This document shows, in pieces, positions 3,819-35,243 of a stretch of DNA of 52,972 nucleotides (position 1 is the stretch's first letter; every line of letters begins with the position of its first letter). A model generated the notes under the pieces. That model did not search any database, was not told the origin of the DNA, and worked only from the letters and a program-made list of their open reading frames with translations. The stretch lies in IMG/VR virus record IMGVR_UViG_3300029373_000006; one strand, 5' to 3'. Source of the stretch: a virus. The position numbers and the translations under genes are program-made.

Positions 3819-5126
3819 ATGAATGTCGTTACCGATGCATTGGCGCACGCATGGAATGCGTTCGTCAACCCGTCATCCAACTTCCGTCCGTCCGTCGGAT
3901 ATTCCTCGGCGCGTCGTCCGGATACGCGGGTCTTCACCCGAGGCGTCGACCGATCGATCATATCCTCGCTGTACAACCGCATCGCCATCGATGTGAGCGC
4001 CATCGAGATCAGACATTGCCGTATCGACAAGACGACGCAGCAATATCTTGAGACGATCGATGACGGGCTCAACCAGTGTCTGAATGTTGAGGCCAATATC
4101 GACCAATCAGGCCGTGATTTTATCATGAACGTCGTGATGACGATGTGCGATGACGGGACCGCGGCTATGGTGCCGATCGATACCACGGTCGACCCGATGA
4201 ATTCGAATTCGTTCGATATTCAGACCATGCGCGTCGGTCGTGTGGTCGAGTGGTATCCGAGGGCCGTGAAACTGTCGGTATACAACGACGCTCCGAATGC
4301 CGGACAGCGTGAGGAGATCATCATGCCGAAGCGCAAGGTGGCGATCGTCCAGAACCCACTGTACCAGGTGATGAACGAGCCGAACTCTACCTTGCAGCGT
4401 CTGATCAGTAAGCTTAATCAGCTTGACGCAATCGACGACAAGGCCGCCTCTGGAAAGCTCGATCTCATCATCCAGTTCCCATACCAGATCCGGACCGAGG
4501 AGAAGAAGCGTCAGGCCGAAATCAGGCGACAGCAGCTTGAGGATCAGCTTAAGGACTCCGCTTATGGTGTGACCTACATTGACGGTTCCGAGAAGGTTAC
4601 CCAGCTCAACCGAAGCCTCGACAACCACATGCTTCAGCAGATCCAGAACCTGACGACCCAGCTCTACGGTCAGCTTGGCCTTTCCGAGGCCGTGGTGAAT
4701 GGCACCGCCTCTCAGGAGGAGATGCTCAACTACCATAACCGCACCTTGGAGCCGATGATCTCGGCCATCTGTGACGCGCTGAAGCGAACCTTTCTGACCA
4801 AAACCGCCCGAAGTCAAGGACAGAGCATCGAGTTCTTCCGCGATCCGTTCAGGTTGGTTCCGGTCACCGATCTGGCGAACATCGCCGCGGCATTCACGTC
4901 GAACGAGATCATGTCGTCGAACGAGTTCCGTTCGATCCTTGGTTTCGCCCGTTCCGAAGAACCTCAGGCGGATCAGTTGCGCAACGCCAATATCAACCCA
5001 CTCGGTACCGACGTGACCGCGCAGCAGCCAGAATCCACAGAAGAACCAACCCAAGATTCAGCACAGCCGTCTATTCAGGATGTGCTGAACTCCCCCATGG
5101 AAGGAGACAGTCAAAATGGGGTATGA
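3819..5126 (+). CDS. Portal protein (HK97-family-like), putative.
   Basis: The 435-aa product has an acidic C-terminal tail and an 'NEFRSILGF' region like HK97-type portals. It lies between the connector and the protease/capsid gene. Confidence 0.5.
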   Translation: MNVVTDALAHAWNAFVNPSSNFRPSVGYSSARRPDTRVFTRGVDRSIISSLYNRIAIDVSAIEIRHCRIDKTTQQYLETIDDGLNQCLNVEANIDQSGRDFIMNVVMTMCDDGTAAMVPIDTTVDPMNSNSFDIQTMRVGRVVEWYPRAVKLSVYNDAPNAGQREEIIMPKRKVAIVQNPLYQVMNEPNSTLQRLISKLNQLDAIDDKAASGKLDLIIQFPYQIRTEEKKRQAEIRRQQLEDQLKDSAYGVTYIDGSEKVTQLNRSLDNHMLQQIQNLTTQLYGQLGLSEAVVNGTASQEEMLNYHNRTLEPMISAICDALKRTFLTKTARSQGQSIEFFRDPFRLVPVTDLANIAAAFTSNEIMSSNEFRSILGFARSEEPQADQLRNANINPLGTDVTAQQPESTEEPTQDSAQPSIQDVLNSPMEGDSQNGV

Positions 5127-8827: not shown

Positions 8828-9367
8828 ATGCTCGAATTGACGGTTGAAGGTGAACTCTACGACGAGTCGGAGAACGAATTTATCACTGTAGGACCGCGAA
8901 TCGTTCGATTCGAGCATTCGCTTCTTTCCGTTTCAAAATGGGAGTCGATCTGGAGAAAACCGTTCCTTGACGACGAATCAAAAAGCATCAAGGAAACGCG
9001 GTCATATGTTCGTTGTATGGCGATCGATGATATTTCGGATACCGAACTCGATCTGATCATGCTCAATCATTTTTCCGAACTTAATCATTACATCGAATCG
9101 TCGCAAACGGCGACCACGATCAATCACATGTCCAAAGGGCGTCGTTCATCATCCAAGGTGACGTCCGAACTTATCTATTATTGGATGTTTTCCGCTGGAA
9201 TACCCGCGCAACCATGCGAGACGTGGCATCTCAGCCGTCTTATCGCCCTGATCGAGATATTCGGCGTCAAGAACTCGCCGAAAAAGAAGATGGCAAAGTC
9301 TGATGTTTCGAGGATGTACAGGGAGATGAATGCCCGACGTCGAGCAGAGACTGGGAGCAAGGGATGA
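8828..9367 (+). CDS. Tail assembly chaperone, putative.
   Basis: 179 aa with a Lys-rich C-terminus, located between the major tail and tape-measure genes. Confidence 0.4.
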
Positions 9368-10422
9368 AAGGAATACTCATGGCATTGAATGGTATTGATA
9401 TTGCCAGCTATCAGGCGGGTCTTGATTTTTCTAAGGTTCCTTGTGATTTTGCCATCATCAAGGCGACACAGGGCGCCGGTTACACCAACCCGGATTGTGT
9501 CCGAGCGGTTGAACAGGCCATGTCTCTCGGTAAGGGAGTTGGCGTCTATCATTATATTTCCGGCGGCAATGCAGTCGCCGAAGCAAATTTCTTCATTAAT
9601 TCGATCCTTAACTGGATCGGCAAGGTGATGATCTGTCTTGACTGGGAATTCGACCAGAATTCGGCATGGGGCAATGAGTCCTATCTCGAGCAGGTGATCA
9701 ATCAGGTTATCGCACGAACCGGTGTTCCTCCGATGATCTATGCGTCGGCATCCCGTTACAATCAGGTCGCTGAGGTCGCCAAACGTCATAACTGCGGCCT
9801 GTGGATCGCGCAGTACGCCGACACGAATCCGACCGGGTATCAGAACACGCCATGGAACGAAGGTGCTTATGCCTGTGCCATCCGTCAGTATTCGCCCGCT
9901 GGTCGATTGAACGGTTGGAACGGCGATCTTGATCTTGATAAGTTCTACGGATCTCTTGACGACTTCAAGAAGTATTATGGGAAGTCCTCTTCGAAGCCTT
10001 CGAAGCCGTCCGTTCCATCCTCTTCCGCTCCTTCGGGAACCACGCTTCAGCTGGCGACGTGGACGATGGAAGGCAAGTATGGCAATGGTGCGGATCGTAA
10101 GAAGAATCTCGGATCCCGATACGATGAGGTGCAGAACTTCATCAATCACATCGCTTCCGCCGATGTCAACGCCCTTGCGAAGGAAGTTTGGAGCGGCAAG
10201 TACGGCGATGGCAATACCCGTAAGGTCGTGCTCGGAAGCCGATATGATGAAGTGCAGAAGATCGTGAATGGTAATGGTGTCACCAGGTATACTGTTCGGC
10301 CTAACGACACGCTTGGTGCCATCGCGCAGCGGTATGGTACCACGGTCAATCAGCTCGTGGCATGGAACAACATCGCCAACCCCAATCTCATTTACGTCGG
10401 TCAAACCATTCGAGTCAAGTAG
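9364..10422 (+). CDS. Endolysin: GH25 muramidase + 2x CW_7 repeats + C-terminal LysM.
   Basis: '[16 protein letters not shown]...[15 protein letters not shown]...GVYHYISG' is the GH25 pattern. Two repeats 'GKYG(N/D)[12 protein letters not shown]' follow, and the C-terminus '[43 protein letters not shown]' is LysM. Confidence 0.75.
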
Positions 10423-10428
10423 GTCAAA

Positions 10429-10809
10429 ATGAGGGTGAATTTCGAAGTGTCTGGCGGTTTCACGAAGACCGAGCGGTTTCTCAACCGCATGAAGCGTCGT
10501 GAATACCTGAACGTGCTCGATGAGTTCGGCCGTGACGGCGTTCAGGCACTTCGAAATGCCACCCCGGTCGATTCCGGTGCCACGGCCGAGGCGTGGGATT
10601 ACGAGATCAAACGCACCCGTGATTGCACCGAGATCGTTTGGATCAATTCCAACATCAACGACGGCGTTCCGATTGCTGTCATCCTCCAGTACGGTCACGG
10701 CACCGGTACCGGAGGCTATGTCCAGGGTCGTGATTACATCAACCCGGCGATCCGACCCATATTCGATAAGATAGCCGAGAAGGCTTGGAAGGTGGTGACT
10801 TCTGCATGA
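10429..10809 (+). CDS. HK97 gp10-family protein (neck / tail completion).
   Basis: 'ATPVDSGATAEAWDYEI...VILQYGHGT' matches the gp10 'PVDTG...YA..VE.G' pattern. Confidence 0.45.
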   Translation: MRVNFEVSGGFTKTERFLNRMKRREYLNVLDEFGRDGVQALRNATPVDSGATAEAWDYEIKRTRDCTEIVWINSNINDGVPIAVILQYGHGTGTGGYVQGRDYINPAIRPIFDKIAEKAWKVVTSA

Positions 10810-13800
10810 GCAGCATCGACGAACGCGTCGTAAAGATGCGTCTTGATAATAGCCAATTCGAGCAGGGTGTCAATAAGACCTCCGGTCTTCTCGGTAAGCT
10901 CAAGCAGGCATTAAACCTCGACAAGTCGGTCGAATCGATCAGCAATGTCGATAAGGCCGTAAACGGTGTCAGCTTCAATCCGCTGACCTCCGGTCTTCAG
11001 GGAGTCCAGTCCGGCTTTAACGCCATGGGCGCCGTGGCGTTCTCTGTGCTCAACCGCATGACCAATGCGGCCATTGATGCCGGGAAGAGTATCACCAACG
11101 CCCTGACGGCCTCGGTACGTGACGGTTTCGCCGAATACGAGACCCAGATGAATGCCGTGCAGACGATTCTGGCGAATACCCAGTCAAAAGGATCGACGAT
11201 CGACGACGTCAATTCGGCACTCGACACGCTGAACACCTACGCCGACAAGACCATCTATAACTTCACGGAGATGACGAGGAACATCGGCACCTTTACGGCT
11301 GCCGGTGTGGACCTTCAGACATCGGTGGATTCGATCAAGGGCATCGCCAACCTTGCGGCTGTTTCCGGTTCGAGTTCCGCTCAGGCCTCTCAGGCCATGT
11401 ATCAGCTGTCCCAGGCAATCGCCGCGGGAAAGGTCCAGCTTATGGACTGGAACTCGGTGGTCAACGCTGGTATGGGCGGCGAAGTCTTCCAGAATGCCCT
11501 GAAGCGCACCGCCGAGCACTTCGGCACTAACGTCGACGGCATGATCAAGAAGTACGGATCATTCCGCGAATCGCTGACCAAGGGCGAATGGCTCACCACC
11601 GATGTCCTTACGGAGACGTTGAAGCAACTTTCCGGAGCATATACAGAAGCCGATCTGGTTTCTCAGGGCTACACCGAGGAACAGGCCAAGCAGATCGTCC
11701 AGTTGGCCAATACGGCCGAAGGCGCCGCAACCGACGTCAAGACGTTCTCTCAGTTGATCGATACGACAAAAGAAGCGTTGGCGTCTGGTTGGACTAATAC
11801 TTTCGAAATCATATTTGGCGACTTCGAAGAAGCCAAGGAGCTATGGTCTGGTGTTGCAGACGTTATTTCCGATGTCGTCAACCGATCATCGGAATCGAGA
11901 AACAATCTTCTCCAGGGATGGAAGGATCTCGGTGGAAGAACTAAGCTGATCGAAGGCCTTACCAACGTTTTCAAATCCCTCGGTAAGGTGGTATCAACCG
12001 TCGGTAACGCGTTTCGGAAGGTGTTTCCTCCGACGACGTCTCGGCAACTTATGGATATTACCGAGGCGTTCACTTCGTTCACAGAAAGCCTCATTCCTTC
12101 CGAATCGACGCTAAATAAGATCGGTCGAGTCGCTGAAGGCGTCTTCTCAGTCTTTGATATCGGCGTGCAGGCCGTTAAAGCCGTCGGAACTGCTTTCGCC
12201 ACGGCATTCGGATCCGACAGCATGGGCGGTTTGCTTGATAATCTGCTCGATATCGCCGCCGGATTCGGAGATTGGCTTGTCGGACTTGATAATTCGATCA
12301 AGCAGTTCGGTATATTCGAGGGTGCGGCCAAGGCGGTCGGTTCCGCCATCAGCGGTGTGCTTGGGGTCTTCAGCTCCTTCACTGATGGAATCTCCTCAAT
12401 GGGATCGGCCGTCGGATCGATCGCTTCGACAATTGGTAATACTCTTGGCGGAGCGTTCGAACGGGTCAAGAACGTCATCAGTGATGTCTTGACGTGGATC
12501 ACCGACAACATCTCCGGTGGTGATATTTTCGCTGGCCTCGCCGGAGGTGGCATCTTCCTGGCCGCACAGAAGATCGGCGGGGCGTTCGATAAGATCAAGA
12601 AGGTCTTTGAGGACCTCTTCGGTAATGGGGCTGAAAAGCTCAAGAAGGGTGCTGGCGTATTCGATGAGATCCTAGGCGGTCTTCAAGAATCGTTGAACGC
12701 ATTCACGGGAAGCGTCAAGGCTTTTACTCTTGTAGAGATCGCCGGATCCATCGCGCTGCTTGTTGACTCGATGGAGAAGATCGCTGCCCTCAGTGGTGGC
12801 GAAGTCGTTGGCGGCGTCTCGGCCATCGGCGGCCTGATGACCGAGCTTAACATTAGTCTTAAATCGATCACGAAGACGATGAAGGGCGCTAAGACCACCG
12901 ATCTCATCAAGACCGGTGCGGCCCTCATAGAATTCGCGAAGGCTGTGGACATGTTGGCCAACGCCATGTCCACGATCGGTAATCTCAATTGGGACGAGAT
13001 CGCCAAGGGTCTCACCGGCATGGGCGGCGCCATGACGGAGCTCGTCGCTGCCGCCAAGGGTCTGAGCTACGCCAAGGTCGACCTCAAGACGGCAGGCTCG
13101 CTCATCGCCATGGCCCAAGCGGTCAAAATGGTGGCAGATCCGCTCAAGAAGCTCGGTAACATGAGCTGGGATCAGGTCGGCAAAGGCCTATCCGCCATGG
13201 GTGGAGCCCTGACGGAGATGGGCACGGTCACCGGTCTGCTCGGCCGATTCGGCAAGCACAACATTTCCGCTGCTGTCAGCATGGTCATTACGGCCAAATC
13301 CCTTGGTGATATCGCAGATGCATTCGGGTCGTTCTCTAGCTATGACTGGGGCGAGATCGGACGCGGTCTTACCGCCATGGGCGGCGCTTTGGGCGAAGTC
13401 GGGCTCGTTACCGGCGCCTTGGGCAAGATTGCAGGATTCTCTGGAATTCTAGGTAGCGGTTCCATTTTCATTACAGTGCAGTCCCTTGGTGATATTGCCG
13501 AAGTATTCGGTGAATTCACTCAATACGACTGGGGTGAAATCGGACGTGGTCTGACGGCCATGGGCGGTGCTCTCGGCGAGGTCGGACTCGTCACTGGGGC
13601 CCTTGGAAAGCTCGCGGGCTTCTCAGGCATCATCGGTGGCGGATCGATCCTTATCACTGCTCGGGGTCTTGGTGACATCGCATCGGCGTTCGGATCGTTC
13701 ACTCAATACGACTGGGGCGAGATCGGACGCGGTCTTACCGCCATGGGCGGCGCTTTGGGCGAAGTTGGCGTCATATCCGGCGCTTTGGGTAAACTCGCGA

Positions 13801-16388
13801 GTTTGTCCGGAATCATCGGATCTGGCTCCATAGTTCTTACTGCTAAGGGTCTTGGGGATATCGCCAAGGCGTTCAATTCATTCTCTCGGTATAGCTGGGA
13901 TGAGATCGGACGCGGCCTGGTTGCCATGGGCGGTGCTCTTGGCGAAGTCGGGCTCGTTAGCGGTGCATTGGGTAAACTCGCGGGTTTGTCCGGAATCATC
14001 GGATCTGGCACGATCATCCTCGCCGTGCAAGGTCTTGACGAGATTGCCCGAACGTTCAATTCATTCACTCAGTATAATTGGGATGAGATCGGACGCGGCC
14101 TTGTTGCCATGGGCGGTGCCATGGGCGAGGTCGCCGTCATATCAGGAGCGACAGGTGCCCTGACCGGAATCGCCGGCCTTATGGGCGCGGGAACGATCAC
14201 TCTTGCCTCTCAGGGTCTTACCGATATCGCGACGGCATTCGGTAAATTCACCAAATTCAATTGGGATGAGATTGGGCGCGGCCTCGCCGCCATGGCCGGT
14301 GCCTTGGGCGCAACAGCCCTTGGTTCATTGCTGAATACGCTTTCCGGTCTCGGCGCAGGAGCCATATCCACGGTTGCCGTTCCTCTTGGTCAGTTGGCCG
14401 ATTCGGTCAAGAAATGGTCTGGGGTTACCGTTCCCAGCGATTTGGCGACCAGTCTCGGATCTTTGGCATCCGGGGTCATGAAATTCACGCTCGGCGGTAT
14501 TGGAGCAGGAGCGTTGTCGACCGCAGCCCCGGGCATGGTCCAGATGGCCAACGCGGTCGCGAAGTGGTCGACCATCAAATTCCCTTCTGAGATCGAAGGG
14601 AATCTCAAAGCTCTCGCCAATGGTGTGAAGGCGTTCACGTTCGCTTTCGCCGGTGGATGGTCGATGGACGCGGTTGTTGGCCCCTTGGGACAATTGGCAT
14701 CCGCGGTGAATAAGTGGAAGGGCGTGACGATTCCCGCTGGAATCGAGAGCAATCTCACCGGTCTCGCGAACGGCGTGAAGGCGTTCACGTTCGCTTTCGC
14801 CGGTGGATGGTCGATGGACGCGGTTGTTGGCCCCTTGGGAAAATTGGCCGGAACCGTCAAGAAGTGGAATGGCGTGACGATTCCCGGTGGAATCGAGAGC
14901 AATCTCGCCGGTCTCGCGAACGGCGTAAAGGCGTTCTCGCTTGCGTTCGTCGGTGGATGGTCGTTGGGCGCCATTACCGGACCTCTCGGAAATTTGGCAG
15001 GTGCCGTCAAGAAGTGGAATGGCGTGAAGATTCCCGGTGGTATCCAGGGTAATCTCACCGGTCTCGCGAACGGCGTGAAGTCGTTCACGGGTATTGGTTC
15101 CGGGATCACGGAATCCATGTCGAATGCCGCTTCCGGGGTTCGAGCCATTGCCACAGCGGCTACCAATCTGTCGTCGGCGAACCTTTCCGGAGTCTCGACC
15201 CAGATTTCGACGTTCGTAAGTTCGTTGAACACCACGCAGTCGATTACCAGCACATTACCGGCTGATATTTCGGCGTTCGCAACTCAGTTGAGTTCTGCCA
15301 TGGTCACGTTGGGTAATGTGGTGTTGACCAATGCCGCCACTATCGGATCGGCTTTCTCGTCGCTTCGTACCCAGATAAGCACTGCGACTTTCGGACTCGG
15401 ATTGATCGTTTCTTTGAATATGAGTTCCGCATCAAACGCGGTATCCTCTGGAGCGAACATGATCTCGAGTGGATCAAGCGCCATCGGAGCTGCATTCAAT
15501 CGAATGACGTCGATCGCAAGAAGCCAGATGACGGTATTTTCCAATACCGTTCGTTCGTCCCTCACTCGGGGGGCTTCTTCGGTCCGATCCTCTGTGCCTA
15601 AATTCCTTTCGTCTGGCAAGCAGGTAACTGAATCGTTGATCAATGGTATGAGGAATGGACTCGATCGTATTCCAACCATGTTCAATTCGTCAATCAATTC
15701 CGCGGCTTCAAACCTTCGATCGTTTAGAAGTTCGTTCTATTCGGCCGGATCCTATGTCGCCGAAGGATTTGCATCAGGCATCAATTCTCAGGTAACTGTC
15801 GCAGCCGAAGCTGCCGCACGACTCGCAAACGCAGCGTCCTTAGCGGCAAAGAAATCGCTCGACATTCATTCGCCTTCGAAGGTGTTTGGATGGATCGGTG
15901 AAATGACGGTTGATGGATTTGTTAACACGGTTGACGGAATGGCAACCGATGTTAGAAAGTCCGGATACGGAATGGCCGAGTCGGTTATCAATGGATTCAA
16001 TGAACTCGACATGTCAAATATTTCGGATCCGTCAATTCGTCCGGTGATGGATCTATCCATGGTTAGACGTCAGGCATCCGACTTGTCTTCCATGCTGAGC
16101 ACTTCGACGAATCCGATCAAGGCCGACATTGATTTCATTGGTCGTTTGGATCGTCAAAATGGTGGAGATCATCAGGCAAAGATGTTCGATCGTTTGATTT
16201 CCGCAACCGATAAGAACGCAAAGGAACTATCGGATCTTCGTGGGGATCTTTCGCGATACAACGATTCGATTGCCGGCCAGGAAACGGCCGTGTATGTCGA
16301 TGGCAAGAAACTAGCCAGTAGCATCGCCAAACCGATGAATCAGCAGCTTGGCATTCGATTGAAGAGAGGAAGTCTGTCTCGAATATGA
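10806..16388 (+). CDS. Tail tape measure protein.
   Basis: 1861 aa from the ATG at 10806. It is Gly/Ala-rich and helical with two internal tandem-repeat arrays, in the expected position. Confidence 0.8.
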   Translation: MSSIDERVVKMRLDNSQFEQGVNKTSGLLGKLKQALNLDKSVESISNVDKAVNGVSFNPLTSGLQGVQSGFNAMGAVAFSVLNRMTNAAIDAGKSITNALTASVRDGFAEYETQMNAVQTILANTQSKGSTIDDVNSALDTLNTYADKTIYNFTEMTRNIGTFTAAGVDLQTSVDSIKGIANLAAVSGSSSAQASQAMYQLSQAIAAGKVQLMDWNSVVNAGMGGEVFQNALKRTAEHFGTNVDGMIKKYGSFRESLTKGEWLTTDVLTETLKQLSGAYTEADLVSQGYTEEQAKQIVQLANTAEGAATDVKTFSQLIDTTKEALASGWTNTFEIIFGDFEEAKELWSGVADVISDVVNRSSESRNNLLQGWKDLGGRTKLIEGLTNVFKSLGKVVSTVGNAFRKVFPPTTSRQLMDITEAFTSFTESLIPSESTLNKIGRVAEGVFSVFDIGVQAVKAVGTAFATAFGSDSMGGLLDNLLDIAAGFGDWLVGLDNSIKQFGIFEGAAKAVGSAISGVLGVFSSFTDGISSMGSAVGSIASTIGNTLGGAFERVKNVISDVLTWITDNISGGDIFAGLAGGGIFLAAQKIGGAFDKIKKVFEDLFGNGAEKLKKGAGVFDEILGGLQESLNAFTGSVKAFTLVEIAGSIALLVDSMEKIAALSGGEVVGGVSAIGGLMTELNISLKSITKTMKGAKTTDLIKTGAALIEFAKAVDMLANAMSTIGNLNWDEIAKGLTGMGGAMTELVAAAKGLSYAKVDLKTAGSLIAMAQAVKMVADPLKKLGNMSWDQVGKGLSAMGGALTEMGTVTGLLGRFGKHNISAAVSMVITAKSLGDIADAFGSFSSYDWGEIGRGLTAMGGALGEVGLVTGALGKIAGFSGILGSGSIFITVQSLGDIAEVFGEFTQYDWGEIGRGLTAMGGALGEVGLVTGALGKLAGFSGIIGGGSILITARGLGDIASAFGSFTQYDWGEIGRGLTAMGGALGEVGVISGALGKLASLSGIIGSGSIVLTAKGLGDIAKAFNSFSRYSWDEIGRGLVAMGGALGEVGLVSGALGKLAGLSGIIGSGTIILAVQGLDEIARTFNSFTQYNWDEIGRGLVAMGGAMGEVAVISGATGALTGIAGLMGAGTITLASQGLTDIATAFGKFTKFNWDEIGRGLAAMAGALGATALGSLLNTLSGLGAGAISTVAVPLGQLADSVKKWSGVTVPSDLATSLGSLASGVMKFTLGGIGAGALSTAAPGMVQMANAVAKWSTIKFPSEIEGNLKALANGVKAFTFAFAGGWSMDAVVGPLGQLASAVNKWKGVTIPAGIESNLTGLANGVKAFTFAFAGGWSMDAVVGPLGKLAGTVKKWNGVTIPGGIESNLAGLANGVKAFSLAFVGGWSLGAITGPLGNLAGAVKKWNGVKIPGGIQGNLTGLANGVKSFTGIGSGITESMSNAASGVRAIATAATNLSSANLSGVSTQISTFVSSLNTTQSITSTLPADISAFATQLSSAMVTLGNVVLTNAATIGSAFSSLRTQISTATFGLGLIVSLNMSSASNAVSSGANMISSGSSAIGAAFNRMTSIARSQMTVFSNTVRSSLTRGASSVRSSVPKFLSSGKQVTESLINGMRNGLDRIPTMFNSSINSAASNLRSFRSSFYSAGSYVAEGFASGINSQVTVAAEAAARLANAASLAAKKSLDIHSPSKVFGWIGEMTVDGFVNTVDGMATDVRKSGYGMAESVINGFNELDMSNISDPSIRPVMDLSMVRRQASDLSSMLSTSTNPIKADIDFIGRLDRQNGGDHQAKMFDRLISATDKNAKELSDLRGDLSRYNDSIAGQETAVYVDGKKLASSIAKPMNQQLGIRLKRGSLSRI
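12960..14340 (+). repeat. About 8 tandem ~180-nt (60-aa) repeats inside the tape measure gene ('..Y.WGEIGRGLTAMGGALGEVGLV.GALGKLAG.SGIIGSGSI.IT..GLGDIA.AFG.F..').
   Basis: Near-identical nucleotide blocks recur, for example 'gactggggcgagatcggacgcggtcttaccgccatgggcggcgctttgggcgaagt' at ~13345 and ~13710. Confidence 0.8.
14380..15110 (+). repeat. About 5.5 tandem ~129-nt (43-aa) repeats inside the tape measure gene ('GPLG.LA.AVKKW.GVTIPGGIE.NL.GLANGVKAF.FAFAGGWSMDAVV').
   Basis: A ~90-nt stretch is nearly exactly duplicated at 14610-14700 and 14745-14835. Confidence 0.8.
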
Positions 16389-30670: not shown

Positions 30671-31203
30671 CCAGTAATTCATCGCCATTTTTCAACGCAT
30701 CGTATATTCAATGGCTACGTCGTCGTGTGAATTTCGATGAATACGTCGATCTCAGCATGTCTCTTGCGGCCATACCATTCCATTCCAGTGTCATGATGGA
30801 TCGGAATCGGATATCCGACGGCGAGTCGTTACGTGATGTATACACACGCCGAACCGGATATTCGTTGGTTAGCGGTATTCGAAGATGCTCGGTCCTTGAG
30901 TTCCTCGTCGCCTTGGCCGAACGGGTCAACGATGTACTGGCCATCGTCCCGGTCGACGCGGCGTTCTCCATGTTCCTCGAAAACATGGATCTGACACGAT
31001 GCTCGGATGACTGGTTTCTCAACCAGAGAGATCCTGAGTGTTATATTCAGGACCGATGCGACATCATGATGGATCGACAGTACCGACCTGACGGATCGGG
31101 CGGCGGACTCTTCATCGTTCATGATGACAAGGATATCCGCCCATCCGAATGGTGGTGGCAAATGCAATATTGGCTCAACGAACAGTATATCCCCGATATG
31201 TAA
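30667..31203 (+). CDS. Hypothetical protein.
   Basis: It overlaps the upstream stop. 178 aa. Confidence 0.35.
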   Translation: MTSNSSPFFNASYIQWLRRRVNFDEYVDLSMSLAAIPFHSSVMMDRNRISDGESLRDVYTRRTGYSLVSGIRRCSVLEFLVALAERVNDVLAIVPVDAAFSMFLENMDLTRCSDDWFLNQRDPECYIQDRCDIMMDRQYRPDGSGGGLFIVHDDKDIRPSEWWWQMQYWLNEQYIPDM

Positions 31204-31214
31204 AGGAGGCGAAG

Positions 31215-34097
31215 ATGGATCAAGTGCAGGTGCGTGTCAAAAAGACAAACAAGGGCCATGAATCCATATTCGCCGATCCGAAGATGCGAGGGTATCGCGA
31301 TCTGCTCGTCAAAGGCGGGTCGTTTTATGCGGTGTTCGATCCGGATAGTCATCTCTGGTCACAGAACCTTCAACGCCTTGGCGAGCTGATCGACCGTGAT
31401 ATTCAGGAGTTCGCCGACTCGTATGAGTCTCCAGACGGTAATGAAGCGACCTGCATGCTTATGCAGAACACCTCCAATGGTTGCTGGAACAGGTATATTT
31501 CCGGACTGCGCAATCTGGCCGACAGTGATGCGGTGCTCAATCAGCGAATCATATTCGCCAATGACACTCCGAAGCGCGAGGACTACGCCACCGTGCAACT
31601 GGAATACGCGATATCCGAGGGAGACACCTCGGCATACGACCGGCTCATGAATACGCTGTATGCCCCATCCGAACGCGAAAAGCTCGAATGGGGCATCGGC
31701 GCCTTGGTCGACGGTAATGATATTCAACGCATCCAGAAGATGTTCGTCATCTACGGTGATCCAGGAACCGGAAAGTCGACGATTCTCAATATCATCGAGA
31801 TGCTCTTCCCTGGATACATCGCATATTTCAATGCAGAGGAACTCGGCAAGGGATACCAATTCAGTACCGCGTCCTTCAAGAACTCTCCGCTCATCGGTAT
31901 CCAGACCGATGGCGATCTGAGTCACATGTGGGACAACACCCTGCTTAATCAGATCGCTGCGCATGAGAAGATCGTGGTCAACGAAAAAGGTGTCAAACAG
32001 TACACCGTTCCGCTGAAGACGATGCTATTCATGGCAACGAATAAGCCGGTGAAGATCACTGACGCCAAGTCGGGCATCACAAGGAGACTGATTGATATTT
32101 ATCCGACTGGCAACACGTTGAAACCGGATGATTATTTCGACTGCATGAAACAGATCGGATTCGAATTGGGTGCCATTGCCTATCATTGTCGTGAGGTCTA
32201 CAGGAAGCTCGGGGTCAACCGATATTCCCAGTATCGTCCAACGGAGATGATCGCCAAGACGAATGATATTTACACATTCGTTCAGGACAACATCGACCTC
32301 ATGGACATCGATGAGCCAGTGCGTCTGACCGATCTGTGGCGTGCATACAAGGAATGGTGCGAGGAAGCCCACATCACCGACGTCATGAAACGCTCCGAGT
32401 TCATGTTCGAACTGGCTTCATATTTCGAGAGCATGGATCGAGGGGCGAGCAAGGCAGTTACCTATCATGGATTTCAACGAGACAAATTCGAATCGAGAAT
32501 CGTTGACTCTTCTGACCGACATGCTCGAACATCTGACGACCATGTCTCGTGGCTTCGACTTGCTAAAACGGACAGTCGATTCGACGAACTCTGTCATGAT
32601 TGCCCTGCGCAATATGCTAGAGACGACGAAAGCGGATCCCCGGTTGCCAAATGGGCCCAAGTCAGCACCACACTCAAAGACCTCGACACCAGTCGACTTC
32701 ATTGGGTTAAGGTCCCGGAAAACCACATCGTCATCGACTTCGATATTCGAGGAGAGGATGGCGAGAAATCGCTTCAGGCCAATCTCGAGGCGGCCCGCAA
32801 GTTCCCTCCGACCTATGCCGAGGTGTCCAAGAGCGGACAGGGATTACACCTCCACTATATTTACGATGGAGATGTATCCCGACTCAAAAACCTTTACGAC
32901 ATCCATGTCGAGATCAAGGTTTTCCGAGGCAATTCGTCGCTACGGCGTCTGCTCTCACGGTGCAACGATCATGAGATCTCCCATATTTCAAGCGGCCTTC
33001 CGTTGAAAGGAGAAAAGTCCGTGATCAATCAGAAGGAACTCAAGGACGAACAGCATCTACGCAATGTCATCAAGAAGGCTTTGCGCAAGGAATGTTGTCC
33101 TGGGACCAAGCCGAGCGTCGAGTTCATCAAGAAGCTCATGGACGAGATGTATGAGTCGGGTAAACCATACGACGTCACCGACATGCGCAATGAGATATTT
33201 GATTTCGCTTTGCGGTCGACGCATTGGTCGGATTATTGCATCGTTCTGGTGAACGAGATGAAGTTCAAGTCCGATGATATTCCGAAAGGAAGTGATCCGA
33301 AGAACGCCGATATTCTCACCTTCTTCGATGTCGAGGTCTTTCCGAACCTCTTCATGGTCTGCTTCATGAAAAGCGATTCGGACGTCGTCAAGACATGGAT
33401 CAATCCTCAGCGGCAGAACATCATGACACTACTCGATGAGAATCTGGTGGGATTCAACAACCGCAAGTACGACAATCATATTCTCTGGGCGTGGGGTGTC
33501 ATGGGATACAACAACGCCCAGTTGTATGATCTGTCGATGCGGATCGTCAGCGGAAACAAGAACGCCATGTTCGGTCAGGCATACAATGCATCCTACACGG
33601 ATATTTACGACTTCTCCGCCAAGAAGCAGTCGTTGAAGAAGTGGGAGATCGAATTAGGTATCGACCATCATGAGTTAGGCATGCCATGGGACCAACCGGT
33701 TCCCGAGGACAAATGGCCGTTGGTGCAATCATATTGCGAGGATGACGTCAGGGCCACCAAGGCCGTGTTCGAGCACCTCAAGGAGGATTTCACCGCACGC
33801 CAGATGCTGGCCATGCTCAGTGGCCTGACGGTCAACGACACCACCAACACCCATACCGCACAGATCATATTCGGGAACAACAAGCATCCGCAGTCGGAAT
33901 TCAACTTCACCGACCTTTCGGATATTTTCCCGGGATACACCTTCGACCGATATGCGTCAAAGGACAAGAAGTCCCAATACATGGGCGAGTATCCTGGAGA
34001 AGGCGGATACGTCTGGGTGAACGGCATGGAGAACGGTGATGTCGATCAAGATTACAATAATATTCCGCATCCATGGGAAGTGAGAAGCAATGGGTAG
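31215..34097 (+). CDS. Replication polyprotein: P4-type SF3 helicase + AEP primase-polymerase-like domain + DEDDy 3'-5' exonuclease. It ends at an in-frame TAG.
   Basis: Walker A 'VIYGDPGTGKST', Walker B 'IGIQTDGD' and motif C 'LFMATNKP' are present, as is 'LWRAYKEWCEE'. The PrimPol-like region reads 'HIVIDFDIRGEDGE...SGQGLHLHYIY'. Exo motifs are I 'FFDVEVF', II 'YDNHILW' and III 'YCEDD'. Confidence 0.6.
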   Translation: MDQVQVRVKKTNKGHESIFADPKMRGYRDLLVKGGSFYAVFDPDSHLWSQNLQRLGELIDRDIQEFADSYESPDGNEATCMLMQNTSNGCWNRYISGLRNLADSDAVLNQRIIFANDTPKREDYATVQLEYAISEGDTSAYDRLMNTLYAPSEREKLEWGIGALVDGNDIQRIQKMFVIYGDPGTGKSTILNIIEMLFPGYIAYFNAEELGKGYQFSTASFKNSPLIGIQTDGDLSHMWDNTLLNQIAAHEKIVVNEKGVKQYTVPLKTMLFMATNKPVKITDAKSGITRRLIDIYPTGNTLKPDDYFDCMKQIGFELGAIAYHCREVYRKLGVNRYSQYRPTEMIAKTNDIYTFVQDNIDLMDIDEPVRLTDLWRAYKEWCEEAHITDVMKRSEFMFELASYFESMDRGASKAVTYHGFQRDKFESRIVDSSDRHARTSDDHVSWLRLAKTDSRFDELCHDCPAQYARDDESGSPVAKWAQVSTTLKDLDTSRLHWVKVPENHIVIDFDIRGEDGEKSLQANLEAARKFPPTYAEVSKSGQGLHLHYIYDGDVSRLKNLYDIHVEIKVFRGNSSLRRLLSRCNDHEISHISSGLPLKGEKSVINQKELKDEQHLRNVIKKALRKECCPGTKPSVEFIKKLMDEMYESGKPYDVTDMRNEIFDFALRSTHWSDYCIVLVNEMKFKSDDIPKGSDPKNADILTFFDVEVFPNLFMVCFMKSDSDVVKTWINPQRQNIMTLLDENLVGFNNRKYDNHILWAWGVMGYNNAQLYDLSMRIVSGNKNAMFGQAYNASYTDIYDFSAKKQSLKKWEIELGIDHHELGMPWDQPVPEDKWPLVQSYCEDDVRATKAVFEHLKEDFTARQMLAMLSGLTVNDTTNTHTAQIIFGNNKHPQSEFNFTDLSDIFPGYTFDRYASKDKKSQYMGEYPGEGGYVWVNGMENGDVDQDYNNIPHPWEVRSNG

Positions 34098-34145
34098 AGT
34101 TTTGAATTCCGAATCGCTGAAGATATTTGGAAAGGAGCATGCGCA

Positions 34146-35243
34146 ATGGTCGTAAAAGAAGAACATCTCGGAGGCATGTTCGGAAATGTCGGACTGCTCG
34201 ATGTCTCATCCATGCATCCTAGTTCGATCGTGGCCATGAATCTCTTCGGTCCATATACCGAACGGTTCGACGCCATCCGACAGGCCCGTATCGCCATCAA
34301 GCATAAAGACTTCGATCGATGCCTTGATATTTTCAGGAAATTCGTTCCCGAGGAACGCATCAAGGATCTCGAACCTGTGCTCAAGGGTGAGGATTCCAAG
34401 GCGCTGGCTCAGGCTCTGAAAATCGCCATCAACGCGGTCTATGGCCTGACCAGCGCCTCGTTCCCCACCCGGTTCAACGATGCGGCCAATCCGAACAACC
34501 GCAATCTCGACAACAAAGTCGCCAAACGAGGCGCCTTGTTCATGATTGCGCTCAAGCACAAGGTACAGGAGCTCGGATATACCGTGGTCCACATCAAAAC
34601 CGATTCGATCAAGATCGCCGATGTGGACCACGATATCATCGACTTTGTTACGGCAATGGGCAAGCAATACGGGTACAACTTCGAATTGGAATCCATTTAT
34701 GACAAGATGTGCATCGTCAACAAGTCCACCTACATCGCTCATTCGGCCTACGGCGAGCACTGTGGTGAGTGGACCGCTACTGGGTTGCAGTTCCAGGTTC
34801 CTTATGTCTTTAAGACCCTGTTTACCAAAGAGCCCGTCGGTCTGGAGGATTTCCGAGAGACCAAGTCGGCTCAGTCCAATATTTTCCTCGATTTCAACGA
34901 GGGACTTGGACCGGACGAGCATCATTATAGCTTTGTTGGTAAGGTTTCGGCTTTTTCCCCCGTCAAATCGGGATGCGGAGGAGGTCTACTGGTACGTGAG
35001 AACAGCCGAGGCGGTTACGATGCGGTATCTGGAACAAAAGGGTATCGCTGGAAGGAACATTCGATCATCCGAGACAATGGCCTTTCTTCAGAGATTGACC
35101 GACGATATTATGAGCGATTGGCCGATGATGCCATCGACACCATCGAACAATACGGATCGTACGAATGGCTGATCGACGAGAGTAGTCCATATTCCTCGCC
35201 GAATCCGGCATCGAACGATCTCATGAAGGAGCTGGCTGCATGA
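34146..35243 (+). CDS. Family-B DNA polymerase polymerase domain, in frame with the upstream exonuclease ORF.
   Basis: Motif A 'LLDVSSMHPSSI' (DxxSLYPS-like), motif B 'KIAINAVYG' (KxxxNSxYG), motif C 'VHIKTDSI' (DTDS) and KxY 'NKSTY'. It has its own 'gatatttggaaaggagca' RBS. Confidence 0.65.
   Translation: MVVKEEHLGGMFGNVGLLDVSSMHPSSIVAMNLFGPYTERFDAIRQARIAIKHKDFDRCLDIFRKFVPEERIKDLEPVLKGEDSKALAQALKIAINAVYGLTSASFPTRFNDAANPNNRNLDNKVAKRGALFMIALKHKVQELGYTVVHIKTDSIKIADVDHDIIDFVTAMGKQYGYNFELESIYDKMCIVNKSTYIAHSAYGEHCGEWTATGLQFQVPYVFKTLFTKEPVGLEDFRETKSAQSNIFLDFNEGLGPDEHHYSFVGKVSAFSPVKSGCGGGLLVRENSRGGYDAVSGTKGYRWKEHSIIRDNGLSSEIDRRYYERLADDAIDTIEQYGSYEWLIDESSPYSSPNPASNDLMKELAA

Follow-up and report, generated by a model that had tools for sequence, protein, structure and literature searches.

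A helicase–primase–family-B DNA polymerase probably split into two adjacent cistrons in a viral genome related to Bifidobacterium phage BitterVaud1

Two-piece family-B DNA polymerases (PolB) are known from archaea, with Methanothermobacter PolB1 being a two-subunit enzyme and Nanoarchaeum PolB being joined by a split intein. Among phages, gene 43 is divided into two parts, 43A and 43B, in Aeromonas phages 25 and 44RR, which are related to T4; the parts are separated by either a seg endonuclease gene or an untranslated spacer, and their products are active and co-purify (PMC2988022). The nrdA gene of Aeromonas phage Aeh1 is split by mobE, the gene for a free-standing HNH-family endonuclease, and the tails derived from this insertion are essential for activity (Friedrich 2007; Crona et al. 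2011, PMC3045599). Here, we describe a 52,972-nucleotide stretch of viral DNA (IMG/VR virus record IMGVR_UViG_3300029373_000006), referred to below, at its full length, as the window, in which the coding sequence of a helicase–primase–PolB protein is interrupted by a single TAG codon and resumes in a second open reading frame (ORF) a short distance downstream. The upstream and downstream genes are called the N half and the C half, respectively. It is very probable that they constitute a stable "gene in pieces"—that is, a genuinely split exonuclease/polymerase encoded by two adjacent cistrons—with the TAG being an ordinary terminator whose in-frame position is incidental.

All features of the window described here lie on the forward strand. 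The N-half gene (31215..34097) encodes 960 residues; mechanical ORF detection placed its start at 31149, and 31215 is favored by public gene calls and by the PHROG match. The TAG stop codon occupies 34095..34097, a position at which relatives carry TAA, TGA, or TAG, and is followed by a 48-nt intercistronic spacer (34098..34145), which aligns at the DNA level with the gap cassette of relatives and translates as SFEFRIAEDIWKGACA. The C-half gene (34146..35243) encodes 365 residues comprising the palm, fingers, and thumb of a PolB, an assignment based on phrog_4210, a profile search against PDB, an AlphaFold2 (AF2) model, and Foldseek. Its ATG (34146-34148) is in frame with the N half and is preceded, at a distance of 8 nt, by the Shine-Dalgarno (SD) sequence AAGGAG (34132..34137), which is inherited from a deleted hydrophobic mini-ORF. 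Coordinates and translation agree with the initial annotation, which had reported a TAG at 34095 and an ATG at 34146 in the same frame, separated by a 48-nt spacer made up entirely of sense codons, and the ribosome-binding site (RBS) that it had placed ahead of this ATG corresponds to the AAGGAG at 34132-34137.

Profile matches to known phage proteins run continuously across the break. Against phrog_4210 (1304 positions), the N half covers positions 1-950 and the C half positions 953-1291, and against phrog_1252, annotated as "DNA polymerase" (663 positions), the two halves cover positions 46-267 and 349-507, respectively. Thus, the two ORFs correspond to consecutive parts of profiles of single-polypeptide polymerases, indicating that the interruption is real rather than a chance pattern of ORFs, and that both derive from one ancestral gene.

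In the N half, a D5/DUF5906-type helicase is followed, in order, by a primase-polymerase-like block, the motifs of a PolB 3′-5′ exonuclease, a GEGGYV strand, and a lineage-specific tail, with Pfam matches to DUF5906 and Pox_D5. The P-loop of the helicase lies at 31755-31781, and the primase-polymerase-like block contains VIDFDIRG (32730-32753) and GQGLHLHY (32835-32858). The exonuclease motifs are Exo I (DxE; FFDVEVFPN, 33321-33347), Exo II (Nx2-3[FY]D; FNNRKYDNH, 33453-33479), and Exo III (Yx3D; YCEDDV, 33732-33749), with the residues D, E, N, Y, D, Y, and D being invariant among 15 diverse homologs; comparison of the exonuclease region with PDB by phmmer and by profile search gave no meaningful match. 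The C half carries motif A (DxxSLYPS-type, with the catalytic Asp; LLDVSSMHPSS, from 34194), motif B (KxxxNSxYG; KIAINAVYG, 34419-34445), and motif C (DTDS; HIKTDSI, i.e., KTDS, 34590-34610). Among 33 homologs, D19, S22, H24, and P25 of motif A, and K92, N96, Y99, G100, T152, D153, and S154 of motifs B and C, are invariant. The initial annotation had placed Exo I–III upstream and PolB motifs A, B, and C downstream of the TAG, which is borne out; its "KxY" motif, on the other hand, reads NKSTY and is only KxY-like. Its description of the TAG as lying between the exonuclease and polymerase domains holds for the order of the motifs but not for the exact boundary, as the break point falls inside the first palm β-hairpin and is separated by 16 residues from the downstream LLD of motif A, with the conserved first palm strand GEGGYV being retained by the N half.

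Searching of the C half against Pfam returned no family at E ≤ 0.01, including DNA_pol_B. A profile built from the 33 C-half homologs matched E. coli Pol II (5.7e-6), Sulfolobus (S. solfataricus) PolB1, and Pol alpha in PDB, with the matches extending across motifs A–C. Furthermore, the AF2 model of the C half has a pLDDT of 84.2, and its top 50 Foldseek matches in PDB are all family-B polymerases (E of 4.5e-8 to 1.2e-5, prob 1.00), with modest TM scores of 0.30-0.45. The C half belongs to a divergent PolB lineage that is recognized only by PHROG profiles, PDB profile search, and fold; because it lacks any Pfam match, standard domain annotation will miss the polymerase half. This lineage is widespread, with 3826 homologs at E ≤ 1e-10, and is labeled "hypothetical protein" in public records.

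The split was compared among relatives of the window. A scan of viral contigs returned 22 close loci (L003-L024) with 86-100% identity to the window, and in all 22 the break lies at the same residue. The N-half stop is TAA in 14 of these loci, TGA in 5, and TAG in 3, and the gaps between the halves measure 48, 251-269, 350-363, 831, 945, or 976-977 nt. In 5 of the 22 loci, both halves lie in one frame, which is close to the one-third expected by chance. In the window itself, four other pairs of adjacent forward-strand ORFs share a frame across a single stop, and TAA, TAG, and TGA all occur among the single in-frame stops that separate long ORFs. The shared reading frame of the two halves is no more than chance. 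The window corresponds to JGI 3300029419 Ga0243913_100654 (L091). A TAG allele identical to that of the window was found in independent assemblies from other samples (L003, L088, and L093), with L004 also having a TAG at the corresponding site.

Beyond these close loci, the same-residue split is found in L042-45 and in Bifidobacterium phage BitterVaud1 (MT006236; L001), and the C-half ATG is kept in all of the split loci. BitterVaud1 is the closest deposited genome, with about 66-68% amino acid identity, and was the sole match when the junction was compared with GenBank phages by megablast (77% over 25% of the query). It shares its break point, tail and head sequences, and flanking gene order with the window, and its gap is filled by a 213-aa ORF (L001 4782-5423), so that three ORFs lie in three different frames. 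All three of its coding sequences (CDS 00050/00051/00052) are annotated as hypothetical proteins, and the split is absent from the annotation. Stand-alone homologs of the C half fall into about 27 clusters with 58-97% identity, are mostly 354-368 aa long, occur on contigs of up to 56 kb, and start 3-8 residues before LGGMFGNV. The exact C-half protein of the window was called as a stand-alone 365-aa protein on at least 38 contigs, and its 90% cluster comprises 859 members, nearly all of 365-366 aa. The possibility that homologs of 360-380 aa are truncations at contig ends was considered and rejected, since they are internal to contigs of 50-96 kb and have the N half upstream. The initial annotation had suggested a comparison of homologs for fused versus split forms; within this clade, homologs are consistently two genes with a varying linker, which argues against readthrough.

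In comparisons with relatives at dS ranging from 0.2 to saturation, the C half has a nonsynonymous to synonymous substitution ratio (dN/dS) of 0.03-0.09, and the final 300 N-half codons have one of 0.07-0.15. Both halves are under strong purifying selection; the split is old, and both of its products are probably functional. The conserved split, the variable gap, purifying selection, and the C half's own translation signals together lend strong support to one of the options considered in the initial annotation, namely that of a genuinely split exonuclease/polymerase.

Comparison of split and fused junctions defines an N-half tail, GEGGYVWVNGMENGDVDQDYNNIPHPWEVRSNG (33996..34094), which resembles a degenerate copy of the second hairpin strand, the one preceding motif A (GMENGDVDQD vs. 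GMYGNVALLD) together with about 20 conserved extra residues, and the junction of fused relatives reads GEGGYVYAEPGMYGNVALLD. This tail is kept in BitterVaud1 and in a fused sister clade, and the dN/dS of the last 33 N-half codons, which encode it, is 0.14-0.38. The sister clade (L025-L041; about 62% identity) has one ORF of 1370 aa with an insert of ~75 aa at the break point (about 4290-4560 in each), and this insert contains sequences homologous to the N tail and the C head of the window, with a linker between them. As the same tails lie within one ORF in L025-L041, tail and head are compatible with an assembled enzyme.

Two sharply distinct tail alleles, WV(Y/N)GMENG(N/D)VDQDY(K/N)DIPHPW and FVYGMDNGYGDYSYMEMKHPW, occupy the last ~30 N-half codons in L003-L024. 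They are distributed as a mosaic among genomes that are otherwise 93-99% identical, lie beside the endonuclease insertion point, and show a tail dS of 0.5-2.0 vs. 0.2-0.3 for the rest of the gene. This mosaic may represent a co-conversion or cleavage-immunity tract.

A sub-lineage of the short-spacer allele varies in a run of adenines just before the stop: with runs of A8, A9, A10, or A11, the N half can end in any of the three frames, the variants ending in ...KKTMDRVLNSESLKIFGKEHAQWS (at a TAA overlapping the C-half ATG), ...KKNNG (at a TAG), or ...KKKQWIGF (at a TGA). In L089, L090, and L092, the N half continues through the frame of the relic ORF described below and stops at the TAA overlapping the C start. 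Given these endings in every frame, translation of the C half must be independent of the frame in which the N half is read. The A-run is located ~10-20 nt 5′ of the N-half stop in L004, L005 (~4437-4446), L089, L090, and L092, which are otherwise near-identical alleles, and its length variation could be either real, slippage-prone variation or a homopolymer assembly error.

Judging from the gap contents of the relatives, the junction is polymorphic and serves as a landing site both for small ORFs and for free-standing genes encoding I-HmuI-like HNH homing endonucleases. The commonest content in close relatives is a pair of ORFs. The first, of 95-106 aa, has a start codon overlapping the stop of the N half; the second, a hydrophobic mini-ORF of 32 aa, has a stop codon overlapping the ATG of the C half (ATGGTAG). 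The gap ORFs of L006 lie at 4131-4445 (104-aa) and 4409-4507, and the gap of L042 holds a 61-aa hydrophobic ORF (4319-4504). No Pfam family or PHROG was matched by the small gap ORFs (the L006 104-aa and BitterVaud1 213-aa ORFs). As a separate observation, the gap ORFs include small membrane-like peptides, with no family match, encoded between the two halves of a polymerase. Endonucleases of the HNH_3 and I-HmuI NUMOD-like types (Pfam; phrog_59) occupy the gaps of L012, L013, L017, L024, and L043-45; a 166-aa endonuclease is inserted within the last N-half codons in L012, L013, and L017, a 164-aa paralog lies just 5′ of the C half in L024, and a 155-aa endonuclease is the sole gap gene in L043-45. 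These three types share 43-52% mutual identity. An insertion footprint is visible in L012 (3509-4138; also L013 and L017), where the N half has acquired a new tail ending in HPWDTN, and the old tail, HPWEVKNNG, ends a downstream 42-codon relic ORF.

The 48-nt spacer of the window can be aligned with this small-ORF cassette. By DNA alignment, it consists of ~25 nt from the 5′ end of the small ORF followed directly by the 3′ segment of that ORF, CTGAAGATATTTGGAAAGGAGCATGCGCAATGG, which holds the SD and ATG of the mini-ORF and is fused straight onto the C-half ATGG; a tblastn search with the L006 small ORF likewise matched the window at 34105-34149 (E = 3e-4). The spacer is thus a double-deletion relic (deletions of about 225 and 90 nt) of a cassette comprising an ORF of ~100 aa and the 32-aa mini-ORF, and the two deletions account for the spacer, for what the initial annotation called a full RBS module, and for the shared frame. 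Translation and DNA alignment also reveal a relic 21-codon ORF, MGRVLNSESLKIFGKEHAQWS followed by a stop (34090..34155), in which the first 9 codons of the relatives' ~100-aa gap ORF are fused to its last ~11. It shares nucleotides with the stop of the N half (ATGGGTAG) as well as with the start of the C half (ATGGTCGTAA), and may provide translational coupling of the N and C cistrons or may be inert.

With respect to more distant relatives, 254 of 266 phage records cover the junction region in one piece. Most relatives, namely phages of Arthrobacter, Gordonia, Streptomyces, and Rhodococcus, have a single-chain "DNA primase/polymerase," and the single polypeptide measures ~1250-1300 aa in most actinophage-like relatives; L002 and L046-L082 are fused without an insert. 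Two further break sites, slightly upstream, were found in other lineages. In L084/85, the upstream ORF ends in ...TDLATGEQYEWPNTNR at a TAG, and a 12-nt spacer containing GGAGG is followed by the ATG of the next ORF (MINSFPGY); L086/87 are broken at this site too, and there the gap is occupied by a 196-aa HNH gene. In L083, the upstream ORF ends in ...DLGKPVRP, and four small ORFs precede the C half. One of these gap ORFs (L083 4145-4345) repeats, in diverged form, part of the N-half segment that precedes it (...FNARQILLDVEDAIANDTTNNLTVRIIFGK...), suggesting a duplication at the insertion event. Taken across lineages, the exonuclease/polymerase boundary of this polymerase family is a recurrent target of endonuclease-associated fragmentation.

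The following mechanism is proposed for the window. The N cistron would yield a protein containing the helicase/primase, the proofreading exonuclease, the first palm strand, and the tail, with its translation terminating normally at the TAG. The C cistron would be translated independently from its own AAGGAG and ATG, with initiation possibly being aided by coupling through the relic ORF, and would supply the palm (motifs A and C), fingers (motif B), and thumb. The two proteins would then reassemble through non-covalent contacts, with an interface formed by the N tail and the C head. Because the tails are conserved, a fused sister clade exists, and there is precedent for such assembly, we infer that the halves would form an active heterodimer; similarly, the gap contents of relatives lead us to infer that the split probably arose from the insertion of a homing endonuclease.

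Several points weigh against this proposal. A search for gap-endonuclease homologs across the entire window found none, the endonuclease origin being drawn from relatives. The order of events may have been either from a fused gene with an insert to a split one, or from a split gene to a re-fused one. Low-level readthrough of the TAG in the window allele is compatible with the sequence, and the fused protein of the sister clade suggests that a fused product would be tolerated. A more elaborate history, which we put forward only tentatively and consider somewhat doubtful, is that of a full fragmentation-repair cycle, in which an endonuclease split the palm hairpin, the duplicated tails became interaction modules holding the exonuclease and polymerase halves together, the endonuclease was lost to leave the 48-nt relic of the window, and the sister clade was re-fused with the tails retained as an internal loop, with at least three independent break sites. 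If true, such a cycle would provide a natural allele series for studying the reassembly of split polymerases.

Programmed readthrough or suppression of the TAG has to be weighed against the split. It would generate a helicase-primase-PolB fusion of ~1340 aa, spanning ...EVRSNG-X-SFEFRIAEDIWK..., with the stop acting as a valve that sets the ratio of N half to full-length protein. Such a product would fit the ORFs of the window, L003, L004, L088, and L093, which are in frame across one TAG with 16 sense codons between, and the sister clade demonstrates that a fused protein with a long linker at the break site is viable. However, frame, stop, and gap length differ among relatives that are 95-99% identical, most of which have TAA, are out of frame, and carry whole genes between the halves; the A-run variants of the short allele use all three frames; and a strong SD and ATG precede the C half. 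Moreover, the predicted RNA fold of 34085-34185 is no better than that of shuffled sequences (z = -0.05), and an ARAGORN tRNA scan of the entire window found no tRNA and hence no suppressor, both of which count against readthrough. Overall, the variable stop, spacer, and frame, the C half's own SD and ATG, and the lack of a suppressor tRNA and of a stimulatory RNA structure in these searches speak against the readthrough option raised in the initial annotation and make it highly improbable. Reassignment of TAG was likewise rejected, with no tRNA in the window and TAG being commonly used as a terminator: about 15 of 71 crude ORFs of the window end in TAG, including those at 2079, 10422, and 25747, in line with the argument made in the initial annotation against genome-wide recoding. 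The lone stop in an otherwise continuous frame might also be read as a recent nonsense mutation, a sequencing or assembly error, or the mark of a decaying pseudogene of a defective phage. This has next to no probability, as the TAG allele is identical in the independent assemblies L003, L088, and L093 with an equivalent TAG in L004, the split is common to BitterVaud1 and L042-45 at saturated dS, dN/dS is below 0.15 in both halves, and the stand-alone C half forms its 859-member cluster; the recent nonsense mutation that had been entertained initially and a sequencing error are excluded by the independent assemblies and by the presence of the split in lineages with saturated synonymous sites.

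Removal of a group I or group II intron, or of an intein, could in principle restore one polymerase chain. Group I introns encoding HNH endonucleases, such as I-HmuI in SPO1, are classically found in the DNA polymerase genes of phages, and the gap endonucleases of the window's relatives are I-HmuI-like. A gap of 48 nt, however, cannot hold an intron, and the stop codon excludes an intein; in addition, the gap ORFs of relatives are free-standing with start/stop overlaps with the flanking cistrons, instead of a clean exon junction there are additional conserved coding tails on both sides of the gap, and an Rfam search over 33700-34500 found no intron or other family at E ≤ 10 except for chance miRNA matches. 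The probability of this explanation is therefore negligible. It is also conceivable that the halves form no stable complex, with the C half being a minimal stand-alone polymerase and the N half a helicase-primase with a proofreading exonuclease that acts in trans, in the manner of Pol III alpha/epsilon. Each half has separate translation signals, the model of the C half folds confidently on its own (pLDDT 84), and whole genes part the halves in many relatives, all of which would suit two independent enzymes. Nevertheless, the break lies within a palm β-hairpin, with the GEGGYV strand being kept by the N half; the tails are conserved, and joined in the sister clade; and the split gp43A/B and NrdA-a/b do assemble, so we regard independent enzymes as improbable. 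The split polymerase encoded by two cistrons is preferred over these alternatives.

For annotation, this means that the locus should be described as two genes for subunits of one polymerase, and not as a pseudogene, a case of recoding, or a sequencing error; at present, BitterVaud1 and hundreds of metagenomic relatives carry only "hypothetical protein" labels for the halves. The locus offers graded natural alleles—that is, endonuclease-occupied, small-ORF-occupied, emptied, fused with the insert, and fused without the insert—and this series could be used to map what a split polymerase requires for reassembly, as well as the target site of I-HmuI-like endonucleases. Elsewhere in the window, the ORFs at 9364-10422, 10429-10809, and 10785-16388 include a second same-frame pair across a TAG (10420), directly 5′ of a 1867-aa ORF with a TTG start. 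The layout of 9364-16388 resembles a region encoding a tail protein, chaperone, and tape measure, where programmed frameshifting is common.

A literature search on split DNA polymerases returned only Pol III and RNA polymerase cases from jumbo phages, with no direct bearing on the present one, and a search for papers mentioning BitterVaud1 found none. By analogy with the systems introduced above, the window would add an independent, population-scale example of an essential family-B polymerase in two pieces, and no new mechanism. The closest likeness is to gp43A/B: in both, a replicative PolB enzyme is encoded by two adjacent cistrons, the gap is an endonuclease gene or a short spacer, and the gene is contiguous in related phages, with the window resembling the spacer-only allele of the 44RR type. 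Unlike gp43A/B, however, the protein described here is a helicase-primase-PolB fusion of siphovirus-like actinophage relatives that is undetected by Pfam DNA_pol_B, the endonuclease of the window's relatives is an I-HmuI-like HNH rather than a seg GIY-YIG enzyme, and there are also a re-fused or pre-split sister clade and at least three independent break sites. In Aeh1 NrdA, an essential replication-related gene is similarly fragmented, and the N tail and C head of the window look like its insertion tails; the Aeh1 protein is a ribonucleotide reductase, though, and the window has no endonuclease but only a relic spacer. Finally, in the archaeal split PolB enzymes, two halves together make up one active polymerase, as proposed here, but these enzymes are cellular, their break lies elsewhere in the polymerase domain, and that of Nanoarchaeum is re-ligated by trans-splicing, of which there is no sign in the window.

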